A stretch of DNA of 64,000 nucleotides from a virus (lineage: Duplodnaviria; Caudoviricetes), in IMG/VR virus record IMGVR_UViG_2912101750_000002; one strand, given 5' to 3'. Made by a program: the position numbers and the translations under genes. Below, in pieces: positions 38,401 through 49,337 of the stretch. The notes beneath the pieces are model-generated. The model was given only the letters and a program-made list of their open reading frames with translations, was not told the DNA's origin and did not search any database. Position 1 is the stretch's first letter. Each line of letters starts with the position of its first letter.

Positions 38401-38928
38401 TTATGCAGCCATTTTTTCCATGCTGCCATTGTCGTTAGCCGCAAGCCAGCCGCGCACTAGCGCAACGCTGGCAGTGGCGCACTCATCGGGTGTCGCAGCC
38501 TTAATCACCTCGACGCGATAGCCAAGGGCGCGCAACAGTGCGTGACGCTCAACCTGACCACCGCGCTTCTTGCCCTTGATGATCTTGTCCTTGCTTAGCG
38601 ACCCTTCAGCATTCTTATACTCGATAAGCAGTAGCCTGCCGCTTGACGCGTAGATGCGCAGGTCTGGGTCGCCAGCCATCACACCGGTAGCTTTTGCTTT
38701 CGTGGCGTCTCTCTTGCCAGCCGCAAAATCAGCCGCGAATGTGAACGTCCCTGGCTTAACATCGCTTGCCTTAGTCGCGCATTCCGGTAGTGCCCGCAAT
38801 CGACGCACAGCCTCGGCTTGCAATTCCCACTCGAGAACAGGGGCTGCCTCAATAGTAATCTTGCCATCCTTGGTTATCAGCCGCGTACGCTTGCCGCCGA
38901 TCTTTACCGTCTGCTGTGTGCGGGTCAT
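38401..38928 (-). CDS. VRR-NUC family nuclease
   Basis: EWELQ, GVMAGDPDL, IEYK, Q..H. Confidence 0.85.
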   Translation of the reverse strand: MTRTQQTVKIGGKRTRLITKDGKITIEAAPVLEWELQAEAVRRLRALPECATKASDVKPGTFTFAADFAAGKRDATKAKATGVMAGDPDLRIYASSGRLLLIEYKNAEGSLSKDKIIKGKKRGGQVERHALLRALGYRVEVIKAATPDECATASVALVRGWLAANDNGSMEKMAA

Positions 38929-39590
38929 ATGCGCTTTTCCCTAAGTTCAATCATCATAGCCGCATGCGCAGCCAGTTCTTCCGTGGTCAACCTGCCGGGC
39001 AGCGCTACTAGCCGAACTGGCAGCGCTCCTATTTCCGTGGTGCGCTCGCTAAACGCCAATTCCAACCCAACCTGCCTACCGACCAACTCCACATAGACTT
39101 CGGCTAGCAATTGCGCGTCGATGAGTGCGCCGTGTGTTGTGCGGGCTGCTGTGGATATGCCATACCGCCTACACAGCGCGTCAAGGCTAGCCGGTGAGCC
39201 AGGATGCTTTGTGCGCGCCATTGCCAGCGTGTCTATGACATGGTTGGCCAAGACTGGCATACCGGCTCGCGTGAGTTCGGCGTTCAGGATGCCAACGTCA
39301 AAGCTGGCGTTGTGAGCCACCAGCGGAGCGTTGCCGATGAAGTCCAGCAGGCCAGCCGCTGTGTCTGCAAAGCTGGCCGCACCAGCCAGCATCGCATCGG
39401 TGATGCCGTGCACCGCGGTAGCGTCTGCCGGCATCGGCACACCGGGATTGACGTAGGCGTGAAACGTGCGGCCCGTAGGCAGCATGTCGTAAAGTTCCAC
39501 GGCGCCAATCTCAGCCACCCGATCGGCACGGATGTCGACGCCAGTGGTCTCGGTGTCGATGACGATTTGGCGGGTGGGCTGGCGGGTCAT
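38925..39590 (-). CDS. dnaQ: DNA polymerase III epsilon-like 3'-5' exonuclease
   Basis: IDTETTG, AHNASFD, SLDALC, HGALIDA. Confidence 0.92.
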   Translation of the reverse strand: MTRQPTRQIVIDTETTGVDIRADRVAEIGAVELYDMLPTGRTFHAYVNPGVPMPADATAVHGITDAMLAGAASFADTAAGLLDFIGNAPLVAHNASFDVGILNAELTRAGMPVLANHVIDTLAMARTKHPGSPASLDALCRRYGISTAARTTHGALIDAQLLAEVYVELVGRQVGLELAFSERTTEIGALPVRLVALPGRLTTEELAAHAAMMIELREKRI

Positions 39591-39623
39591 TTTCTTACTA
39601 CCTAAAACCAATTTCTAAGCACC

Positions 39624-39962
39624 GGGACAAATTCCCCCTCTAAAGAGGGGGGAATATGTTGTCCCGCTGGATGCTCGTGGGACAAATTAACGGGACAAGC
39701 GGGACAAGCGGGACAAAATACGTTCTAAGTTATTGATTTTATTGATGATGGTTTTTGGCGTTTTGTCCCGCCTTGTCCCGTAAGTCGATTTTTAGCGGGA
39801 CAAAACAGCGGGACAAACACATGCTGCGGGACAAGTCGTTTTGTCCCGCTAGGTTGCGCTGATGGTTGTGCAACCTAGCGGTGAAATCTTGTCCCGGCAT
39901 TTTGTCCCGCAGCACTGTAAGCTATTGATATTAAACCGGGACAAGGCGGGACAACGGGACAA
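39624..39962. repeat. GGGACAA iteron array, probable replication origin
   Basis: 17 copies counted by eye (11 forward, 6 reverse), two IHF consensus sites, next to primase-helicase. Confidence 0.8.
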
Positions 39963-47900: not shown

Positions 47901-47901
47901 C

Positions 47902-48399
47902 CTAAGCAGCCACCATGCCGCAAGCCTTGCGCAGCGAAGCACGCCCGCGCACCTCGAGTTGACGCACGCGTTCGCGCTTTATACCCATGTCAGATCCAAT
48001 CTCCACCAGGCCGAAGCCCATGCCGCGACGCAGGAGGATTGCACCGTCACGACCAGTTGCCCGCGCAAGCATGTCCTTGGCGATAAGCGCTCGCTCCTGG
48101 TCGGCTGGCTTGCCGATGATTGCTGAGTATTTGTTGTCTTGGTCGTAAACAACCGGCACAGACTTCTTGGTGCGCTTGTTGGCGGCGACGCCGCGCATTT
48201 GACATGCAAGCCAATTGTAGAAGCCGCCCCCAACGCTGTAGTCATCGCCGCGGAAGTTCTCCCATGATGCAAAGATTTGCACCAGCGTGTCTTGGATTAG
48301 TTCCTCGCGCTCGCCTGCGGGCACGTACTTGCGGGTAAGGCTTTTGAGGGCTGGCATGTAGGCGAGGACACGCGCGTCGAAAGATGCGGGACGGTTCAT
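47902..48399 (-). CDS. sigma70/ECF-like factor
   Basis: REELIQDT, FYNWL region 2; EIGSDMGIKRERVRQLE region 4. Confidence 0.8.
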   Translation of the reverse strand: MNRPASFDARVLAYMPALKSLTRKYVPAGEREELIQDTLVQIFASWENFRGDDYSVGGGFYNWLACQMRGVAANKRTKKSVPVVYDQDNKYSAIIGKPADQERALIAKDMLARATGRDGAILLRRGMGFGLVEIGSDMGIKRERVRQLEVRGRASLRKACGMVAA

Positions 48400-49337
48400 G
48401 CTGCTTCCTCGTTGTCGTTCGCGCCGTCGACCCAGATGCGGCCGCTGCGGAGCTTGTAGGTAATCGTCTCTGCCTCTTCATCGCTATCGATAAGCTCGCC
48501 CGGTACCAATCCAGGCAGATGGAGATGCGCGGGACACGCTGCCTTCTGTTCATCGATTCCCAATGGCTTCGAAAACCGTGCGCAACTCCAATGGCAGTCG
48601 CCCCCCTGCTCCGGCTGGCTGTGCAGACAAGAGCGGCATGTCACGCGCGGCATTATGCCTTCGTGGCAGACGTCTTTATGCCGACAGAACATGCATCCGA
48701 AGAATTCTGGATCCTCTGATATCCGAGATGGCGGCTCATCCGAGAACACGATGCGTTCGGCTCGAGCCAATTGGCGCAGGCAATATTCAACATCGTATTC
48801 AAGTCTCTCCGTGTAGCGCGCATCGTCGTTCTTGTTTGTCACGTAATAGAGGCACCGCGACAGACCGAAGGCATGCATCCCGATCTGGCACTGGGCAAAA
48901 TGCAATGGCTTGGCGACCTTGCAGCCCTTCTTGATAATCTCCTTGAAGCCTTTGTCGTTGGACGATTTGAACTCACAGAGGTGTTCGGTCTTGGGCGCCT
49001 CTGGAATACCGATCGCCTTGCCGTCGCACTTGCCGCGCACAAAACCGTGCACCAGGCGAATGCGGTCTTGCTGCCCCCACACCTCAACGCCGATGCGCTC
49101 AAGGTCGGAGACCATTACTTCTTCCCAACGATCGCCAGTGCGGAAGATCGACAGTTTGCGGCCGTCAATCTCCTCCGGCCGCGATGCCCACCTGAAGGTG
49201 TACCAAAGCGCCCTATCGCATTCCGTGCCTATCTCGCCGACGGATATGCCCAATGAGTCGTAATGCTCGTTTGCGTCCTCATAAGCCTTGTAGATCGCGC
49301 GGACGGTGCTGGCGGTTGGCTTCGGCAAAGGCGCCAC
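48396..49337 (-). CDS. PD-(D/E)xK exonuclease (Cas4/YqaJ-like)
   Basis: ECDR, GKCDG, EFKS, AQCQ, C-terminal Cys cluster. Confidence 0.85.
   Translation of the reverse strand: MAPLPKPTASTVRAIYKAYEDANEHYDSLGISVGEIGTECDRALWYTFRWASRPEEIDGRKLSIFRTGDRWEEVMVSDLERIGVEVWGQQDRIRLVHGFVRGKCDGKAIGIPEAPKTEHLCEFKSSNDKGFKEIIKKGCKVAKPLHFAQCQIGMHAFGLSRCLYYVTNKNDDARYTERLEYDVEYCLRQLARAERIVFSDEPPSRISEDPEFFGCMFCRHKDVCHEGIMPRVTCRSCLHSQPEQGGDCHWSCARFSKPLGIDEQKAACPAHLHLPGLVPGELIDSDEEAETITYKLRSGRIWVDGANDNEEAA

Follow-up and report, generated by a model that had tools for sequence, protein, structure and literature searches.

Tails resembling the host tmRNA tag recur on DNA-handling proteins of a prophage related to Rhizobium phage 16-3

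Why do unrelated nucleases and methyltransferases encoded by one prophage end in peptides that look like the degradation tag of their bacterial host? This question is raised by a 64,000-nucleotide stretch of viral DNA (Duplodnaviria; Caudoviricetes; IMG/VR record IMGVR_UViG_2912101750_000002), which was analysed over its full length and is referred to here as the window. It corresponds to bases 7,235,006-7,299,005 of the 7.34-Mb genome, present as one contig, of an alphaproteobacterium of the root-nodule type. As judged by a comparison of gene set and gene order, the element in the window is a temperate prophage and kin of Rhizobium (Sinorhizobium) phage 16-3, to which its exonuclease is 69% and its beta clamp 58% identical, with many further genes in common. 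An earlier, sequence-only reading of the window had drawn attention to eight C-termini resembling the tag encoded by transfer-messenger RNA (tmRNA) and had proposed that they were bipartite degrons for the adaptor SspB and the protease ClpXP. All eight were found at the ends of the genes to which they had been assigned. The gene names given by that reading largely hold according to Pfam and PHROGs, although the label VRR-NUC could be attached to the nuclease at 38401 only through the names of its homologues. The genes and tails are as follows.

38401-38928, minus strand: VRR-NUC-type nuclease ending ..WLAANDNGSMEKMAA; no Pfam match itself, homologues named VRR-NUC
38404..38442, minus strand: tail of the VRR-NUC-type nuclease, AANDNGSMEKMAA; 13 residues, the full length of the host tag; stop codon TAA, no overlapping start
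42318-43541, minus strand: C5 cytosine methyltransferase (PF00145) ending ..AVVNDNTPARMAAA; a second NDN at residue 259
42321..42359, minus strand: tail of the C5 methyltransferase, VVNDNTPARMAAA; 13 residues; stop overlaps the next start (ATGA)
43860-44672, minus strand (tail 43863..43925): N6/N4 methyltransferase (PF01555) ending ..KNDNTPPADMFAPATPVAGAA; NDN, a D-M-F element resembling clamp-binding motifs and a terminal AA
48396-49379, minus strand (tail 48399..48425): Cas4-domain exonuclease (PHROGs) ending ..GANDNEEAA; EEAA explicable by GAGGAA plus an ATGA overlap
62744-63565, plus strand (tail 63518..63562): N6/N4 methyltransferase (PF01555) ending ..AANDNRAPDLFAEAA; stop codon TAG, followed by intergenic DNA
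6565-7827, minus strand (tail 6568..6603): DNA repair exonuclease/phosphoesterase (PHROGs) ending ..SVNDNRKEEMAA
32279-33544, minus strand (tail 32282..32317): portal protein (PF04860) ending ..AANQNAPTTRAA; variant AANQN, with Q for D
1-504, plus strand (tail 454..501): N6/N4 methyltransferase (PF01555) ending ..AADNDNHLPDLFALTA; gene start lies to the left of the window

The exact sequence A-A-N-D-N was present in three of these eight tails; the others had G-A-, V-V-, S-V-, K- or D- before NDN, and the portal had NQN. Seven of the eight ended in AA and one in TA. The orthologues of the phosphoesterase in 16-3, NV1.1.1, TM3_3_14B and AP-16-3 end in AANDN(V/E)P...(V/A)A.

The enrichment check that had been suggested with the sequence-only reading was carried out against the host. 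When all stop-to-stop frames of at least 100 amino acids were considered, 7 of 33,784 frames genome-wide ended in NDN-x(2-16)-AA, and 6 of those 7 were among the 210 frames of the window. With gene sets obtained as greedy non-overlapping calls of open reading frames, which are not a curated annotation, such ends were found in 6 of 94 window genes versus 1 of 7,303 others (Fisher 2.5e-11). The word NDN itself occurred 18 times per 19,924 amino acids in the window versus 63 times per 2,230,457 elsewhere, a 32-fold difference, and AANDN was found 5 times in the window versus twice in the rest of the genome. The permutations of the word were at background in the window (DNN 0, NND 1, NNN 0, DND 1). 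Therefore, NDN is a specific word and not the result of compositional bias, and chance as a source of the NDN tails is excluded. The host does not avoid the motif: its 63 NDN and 13 ANDN in 2.23 million amino acids compare with approximately 70 and 8.5 by a hand estimate from composition, so no depletion was found. The sole NDN-x-AA tail of the genome outside the window, LLAANDNRSEDEAA, ends a 130-residue protein in a small mobile element (G000:C1:4734576-4745802). This element, possibly a phage satellite or remnant, carries a primase-like gene and a homologue of window gene 37643-38365.

The host tmRNA was found to be of the two-piece type and to encode the tag ANDNYAEARLAA; thus, the phage tails resemble this host's own tag. 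The tmRNA itself carries one alanine ahead of the encoded tag, and the appended tag with this alanine included, (A)ANDNYAEARLAA, has 13 residues, which is the length of AANDNGSMEKMAA and VVNDNTPARMAAA. Tags were read from 29 loci of the host's order; 28 of 28 start with ANDN and end in AA, the middle is variable, and in 26 of the 28 an aromatic residue (Y) stands straight after NDN. The mimicry of the host tmRNA tag by the phage tails is real.

The host also possesses the pathway for its own tag. It encodes tmRNA, SspB, ClpP and ClpX with a zinc N-domain. Its SspB is homologous to the Caulobacter SspB of the solved structures 2QAS and 2QAZ and to the Agrobacterium protein, and retains the conserved C-terminal ..LDxFRKK tail. 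Of 61 genomes searched in the order, 60 have SspB, and the one without a match is 84% complete. The sspB gene lies approximately 3 kb from the tmRNA gene in the host genome (G000:C1:3562860-3566711) and directly beside it, at 100-250 bases, in several other genomes of the order (e.g., G035, G022 and G025). According to one source, SspB of E. coli binds the tag's opening seven residues and tethers it to the N-domain of ClpX (PMC9963277). In Caulobacter, as stated in another, an encoded ssrA tag (the tmRNA tag) destabilises fusion proteins, and deletion of sspB slows their decay (PMC9393093).

The placement of the motif was then considered in the window and in a pooled set of six genomes, made up of the window together with the genomes of five related phages; since these are kin, pooled P values overstate significance. 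In the window, 8 of the 18 NDN lie within 25 residues of the C-terminus, 3 lie in the first 11 residues, and several others are located exactly at domain junctions. The pooled set contained 113 NDN, with 52 C-terminal (within 25 residues, where approximately 14% would be expected), 12 N-terminal and 49 internal. It may be concluded that the motif is wider than a C-terminal tag and is also found at N-termini and in interdomain linkers. None of the 18 window NDN falls in the virion block (12,087-35,144; 7,507 of 20,394 amino acids; P 2.6e-4), where the portal bears the variant AANQN only. The further bearers of the motif or its variants in the window are the following.

46149-47942, minus strand (tail 46152..46229): superfamily-2 helicase with tail AVNDNEPANNDNGIGHAKWDELEVPF; two NDN, then a copy of the tip of the single-stranded DNA-binding protein (SSB)
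35545..36192, minus strand: endonuclease VII/HNH protein; AANDN at residues 9-13 and again 20 residues before the C-terminus (..LALAVG)
60999..61304, plus strand: small protein, possibly an excisionase, upstream of the probable integrase; starts (M/V)SAANDNRLPF..LPLF; 58% identical to an NV1.1.1 gene; no family match was found for it
37643..38365, minus strand: 240-residue protein; NDN at residues 6-8 (MNDNTP) and 54-56; a homologue with an internal AANDN sits in a second element of the same genome
39971..42115, minus strand: primase/helicase; residue 327, where NDN stands, falls in the linker joining the primase and helicase parts (domains 23-275 and 320-705)
3898-4794, minus strand: deoxynucleoside monophosphate (dNMP) kinase; PANDN at residues 104-108, just before the catalytic domain (starts at 122)
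5559-6596, minus strand: dNMP phosphatase; NDN at residue 155, just before the catalytic domain (starts at 161)
51907..52470, minus strand: DUF669 protein; tail variants AANNN and AANQN

In phage 16-3, protein p078 has AANDN 24 residues from an end similar to that of the DUF669 protein (..NPWSK); on this tail, the two may be related.

Over the 113 pooled motifs, the consensus was [AP] (79%) - A (73%) - N - D - N - x - P (35%). Between NDN and the C-terminus lay 7-9 residues in 23 of 47 pooled tails and 7-11 in 30 of 47; in the host tag there are 8. Spacings of 7, 8, 8, 10, 4 and 17 were found for the AA-ended tails of the window. In the VRR-NUC family, where the spacing is mostly 7-11, NDN was present in 55 of 106 homologues, right after the conserved ..LVRGWLAA and followed by a freely varying tail. 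The tails of the homologues P0005, P0006, P0028, P0049, P0078, P0082 and P0085 of this family end in KKVA or KKIA and not in AA. An AlphaFold2 model of the VRR-NUC protein of the window (alignment of 46 sequences; mean predicted local distance difference test score, pLDDT, of 88) was confident up to approximately residue 160; the pLDDT then fell to 69 and to 53 over the last 15 residues, so the tail is the low-confidence part of the model.

The same motif was found in phage 16-3 and in four of five other rhizobiophages. Phage 16-3 has 17 NDN per 19,103 amino acids, and its tails include TANDNQEDEAEAA (portal), AANDNVPASERRVA (exonuclease), AANDNRREVEKCA, AANDNEPGSTKA and AANDNQQAEVRACA. The ANDN-coding pattern occurred 20 times in NV1.1.1, 18 times in RHph_TM3_3_14B, 23 times in AP-16-3 and 20 times in RHph_X2_25, and 0-1 times in the reversed control; each of the six pooled genomes had 15-26 NDN. 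A single-protein scan of genome contigs returned four prophage loci in all (from Rhizobium, Devosia and a metagenome bin), with 63-155 NDN per 100,000 amino acids. Phages rich in the motif are also rich in terminal AA, which was present in 11-18 genes per motif-rich genome (85-106 called genes) versus 3 of 117 genes in phage RHph_X2_26 (MW960037.1). A match to the tyrosine-integrase family was obtained in the four motif-rich phages searched and not in RHph_X2_26; as one contrast among kin, this link with lifestyle is suggestive only.

The same tails also contain elements resembling other docking motifs. In the family of the N6/N4 methyltransferases, a C-terminal Qxx[LMFI]F was present in 97 of the best 120 of 6,431 homologues (P0229-P0348), mostly 4-5 residues from the end and spelled QGDMF, QGSLF, QGQLF, QPDMF and in other ways; 68 of these best 120 ended in AA. 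The methyltransferase tails of the window read KPNMF/PADMF, APDLF and LPDLF, with D-[LM]-F kept and Q absent. On this comparison, the D[LM]F of the window tails appears to be part of a family-wide motif that resembles clamp-binding peptides. The consensus of the beta-clamp-binding motif, given in PMC3716654, is QL[S/D]LF and is usually C-terminal. The methyltransferase family pentapeptide resembles it but differs in having G or P, not L, at its second position, and the window copies are without Q. No literature linking bacterial or phage DNA methyltransferases to the clamp motif was found among the matches listed in one search of titles and abstract openings. Both the prophage and 16-3 encode their own beta clamp, which in the window is the following gene.

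50260..51339, minus strand: DNA polymerase III beta sliding clamp of the phage; the three clamp domains of Pfam are all present; counterpart 16-3 p081

In the helicase tails of the window, of L005 2-2065, of L006 295-2127 and of 16-3 p088, two ANDN copies are followed by the end ..DELEVPF, ..ELDDEVPF or ..MMDDIPF. The SSB tip, which is acidic (..D-D-x-I-P-F), serves as a partner-docking peptide, and the SSB of the host ends in ..RELDDEIPF. The last residues of the phage helicase nearly match this host tip, but they are borne by a helicase and follow the ANDN pair. The presence of clamp-type and SSB-type elements suggests that the tails may be strings of hub-docking peptides, and part of the stretch previously read as a degron spacer likely has another role.

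The explanation that seems to us somewhat likelier to be right than wrong is based on the copying of the tag head. This phage lineage has evolved a short linear motif, [AP]-A-N-D-N-x-P, which copies the invariant head of the host ssrA tag. The motif is found in disordered termini, both C- and N-terminal, and in the interdomain linkers of non-structural proteins, namely nucleases, methyltransferases, a helicase, a primase, nucleotide enzymes and a possible excisionase, and would dock its bearers on the host adaptor SspB, which would tether them to ClpX. If the chain then ends in Ala-Ala (or x-Ala) 7-11 residues on, a complete gene-encoded ssrA-like degron would result, and the bearer would be short-lived. 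Early enzymes that damage DNA could in this way be cleared once their synthesis stops, e.g., after the lysogeny decision. The sequences show the motif, its specificity, its placement, its conservation and a host that has the pathway; from them, we infer the binding to SspB, the degradation by ClpXP and the timing role; the motif probably ties the lifetime of the enzymes to the host protease. In the pooled genomes, NDN tails ended in AA in 16 of 47 cases versus 67 of 545 for other genes, and in A in 28 of 47 versus 129 of 545. The bipartite degron of the sequence-only reading is upheld in part: the host-tag head, the AA ends, the spacing, the variety of unrelated enzymes, the conservation and the host pathway speak for it, whereas the lack of the aromatic residue, the half of the motifs that is not C-terminal and the uncoupling of head and end within families do not fit.

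The details of these and several other observations weigh against the degron explanation. An aromatic residue after NDN was found in 0 of 18 motifs in the window and in 3 of 113 in the pooled set, and the phage motif has an extension of its own, x-P, with proline at +2 in 40 of 113. Of the pooled motifs, 61 of 113 lie away from the C-terminus; some of the C-terminal tails end in residues unlike those of a degron (EVPF, AVG, PWSK), and a degradation tag on the portal would be odd. NDN tails were present in 22-23 of the best 120 of 975 homologues of the Cas4 exonuclease, all at least 69% identical to it, and in 10 of the best 120 of 6,431 homologues of the methyltransferase at 43860. Judged from these homologues, the motif is dispensable and is gained and lost among close relatives, as short linear motifs are. 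In the VRR-NUC family, AA ends were found in 14 of 55 tails with NDN versus 29 of 51 without it; for the Cas4 exonuclease, the counts were 15 of 23 versus 41 of 97 among the best 120 of 975 homologues, a weak link (p 0.06). Strict coupling of NDN and AA within families was therefore rejected. Since AA is common in these families with or without NDN, the two are separate modules and not an obligate pair.

The distribution of the motif belongs to the same side of the balance. RHph_X2_26 infects the same genus, Sinorhizobium, and has 0 ANDN patterns and 1 NDN; it has the VRR-NUC, Cas4 exonuclease, helicase and primase families in common with the 16-3 group. Five phages of gamma- and betaproteobacteria with a homologous Cas4 exonuclease (JG054, VPv62, Mcat17, C7 and CGphi29) contained no ANDN, and A-N-D-[DE] occurred 1-2 times in each, approximately as expected by chance; in a sample of this small size, neither a host-matched analogue nor co-variation with the tags of other hosts was found. 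Roseobacter phage CRP-901, considered over the first 28.8 kb of its 53 kb, had 1 NDN in 9,258 amino acids, without enrichment. Because it is present in the kin of 16-3 and absent from RHph_X2_26, from the gamma/beta phages and from this part of CRP-901, the motif is a trait of one temperate phage lineage; it is a trait neither of the enzyme families nor of all alphaproteobacterial phages.

Explanations other than SspB docking were compared. It is hardly credible that the tails arose by chance, from composition or as a by-product of Shine-Dalgarno/ATGA overlaps. The sequence-only reading had itself warned that a terminal AA may arise at such overlaps, and for three or four AA ends this warning was well founded: at 42318, 43860 and 48396 the stop runs into the start of the following gene (ATGA), at 6565 it runs into a possible GTG start (GTGA), and GAGGAA or GAGGAG precedes two of the overlapping AA ends. 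In all, ATGA or GTGA stands at the end of 38 of the 104 genes of the window. However, the overlaps explain neither NDN, with its Fisher value of 2.5e-11 and its flat permutations, nor the trend in AA. The stops of 38401, 62744 and 32279 overlap no start, and among genes without overlap, AA ends were found in 8 of 66 in the window versus 1 of 93 in RHph_X2_26, the host background being 267 of 7,303. Chance and overlap are thus refuted for NDN and are a partial explanation for some of the AA ends. It was considered very improbable that the feature acts as DNA or RNA, marking the borders of modules as a linker for recombination, a binding site or a signal for translation, with the peptide as a by-product. 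Such a role would suit the position of the motifs, which in these mosaic phages stand where genes end and domains join, and the predominance of the spelling AACGAC. Nevertheless, of the 23 AAYGAYAAY sites on both strands of the window, 18 were in the frame of the chosen genes and 1 more was in that of the Pfam-supported methyltransferase at 1-504, which places 19 of 23 in the frame of a supported gene. The codons of the motif vary synonymously (AAC 13/AAT 5, GAC 15/GAT 3 and AAT 10/AAC 8), all four alanine codons are used before it, and the variants ANENN, ANDG, ANSN, ANQN and ANNN hold the same place in homologues at the peptide level.

It is quite improbable, too, that the motifs bind SspB only as competitors, such that many highly expressed ANDN proteins would saturate SspB and ClpXP and blunt quality control or delay one another's decay; the sequence-only reading had mentioned the flooding of this pathway as its second option. 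The number of copies (15-26 NDN per genome) and the several copies without a plausible ClpX degron nearby would agree with this, and for E. coli, PMC12013620 describes how substrates queue for proteolysis at ClpXP. The favoured spacing of 7-9 residues before an alanine C-terminus points instead to productive degrons, and the benefit to the phage is not evident. Docking of ANDN on a reader other than SspB, either a host factor that sees tmRNA-tagged proteins or a phage protein, for assembly or localisation and not for destruction, was judged unlikely, although several observations favour it. These are the missing aromatic residue of the tag, the x-P extension, the location of more than half of the copies at N-termini or in linkers, the neighbouring hub motifs (the clamp-binding-like D[LM]F and the copy of the SSB tip) and the sliding clamp of the phage itself. 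However, unless the reader is shared, an exact match to the invariant tag head would be unexpected, and the hydrophilic ANDN differs in this respect from clamp motifs. We know of no reader of the tag head other than SspB. When the gene contents of five motif-rich phages and RHph_X2_26 were compared, no candidate for a phage-encoded reader was obtained at the sensitivity of blastp, which may miss distant homologues; the only window genes common to all five motif-rich phages and absent from RHph_X2_26 were a motif-bearing endonuclease and a head-tail gene.

SspB docking being the preferred explanation, a wider picture is proposed tentatively, as one that falls a little short of an even chance. 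In the lineage of 16-3, its kin and small satellites, the tag head may have become a portable docking motif borne by approximately one-sixth of the proteins, nearly all of them early DNA-handling enzymes, which would place these proteins under SspB-ClpXP as a shut-off in the choice between lysis and lysogeny. The same tails would mimic the clamp motif and the SSB tip and would thereby wire the enzymes into host hubs. Short linear motif mimicry is well described for eukaryotic viruses; to our knowledge, it has hardly been described at all for phages.

The setting of these genes is that of an integrated phage. The window contains a lysogeny module with an S24-type repressor and a probable integrase that is 60% identical to the integrase of NV1.1.1; no Pfam match of its own was obtained for this integrase. 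The left end of the prophage lies a few hundred bases to the left of the window start. The window edge cuts through the methyltransferase gene at 1-504, and no phage matches were found for the genes further left. A regulator resembling 16-3 p099 is located just to the right of the window. A polynucleotide kinase-phosphatase (HAD_PNKP and AAA_33) adjoins an RNA ligase of the T4 Rnl1 type; kinase-phosphatase and RNA ligase form a pair familiar from T4 tRNA repair. Genes for four tRNAs (Thr, Ser, Ser and Met) are present in the prophage too. Together, these features occupy window 56999-59061 and 36963-37350.

If the explanation is true, these phages would provide a natural, genome-wide viral use of an adaptor-mediated degron, and a simple rule, open to testing, would tell which phage proteins are transient. 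Phage 16-3 can readily be studied in the laboratory with Sinorhizobium meliloti, and RHph_X2_26 is a natural contrast phage for experiments. For genetic work in alphaproteobacteria, the tails could also supply a graded series of natural tags for SspB/ClpXP. Taken with the tails of the clamp and SSB types, they suggest that mimicking host hubs through short motifs may be a general design principle of temperate phages.

No account of encoded tmRNA-tag mimics in phages was found among the top-ranked literature matches, some lists of which also contained no paper mentioning phage 16-3; as evidence that none exists, this is weak. Both ssrA-like C-termini encoded in genes and phage proteins that carry ClpX signals are known, and the recurrence of an adaptor-type head across a phage proteome is not in the literature found. 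The closest known system is the native tmRNA tag read by SspB and ClpXP, with which the phage tails share the A-A-N-D-N head, the Ala-Ala-COOH end and a similar length. They differ from it in that they are encoded in genes and not added by trans-translation, in that the aromatic residue after NDN is missing, in that N-termini and linkers also carry the head by itself, and in that the middle and the last-but-two residue are free. The Caulobacter ssrA fusions likewise carry a gene-encoded AANDN...AA tail, which destabilises them and whose effect is slowed by the loss of sspB, according to PMC9393093; they are laboratory constructs with the full native tag, whereas the phage tails occur in nature, have diverged and are borne by many genes. 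The C-terminal degrons of ClpX comprise C-motif 1, which is ssrA-like, and C-motif 2, found in the transposase MuA of phage Mu, whose tail is quoted in PMC12723719 (..RRKKAI). MuA resembles the proteins described here in having a built-in C-terminal ClpX signal on a phage protein, and the KKIA/KKVA tails of some VRR-NUC homologues are similar to its tail. These known ClpX degrons, however, belong to single proteins without an adaptor-binding head, whereas in the 16-3 lineage one head recurs on at least a dozen proteins per genome.

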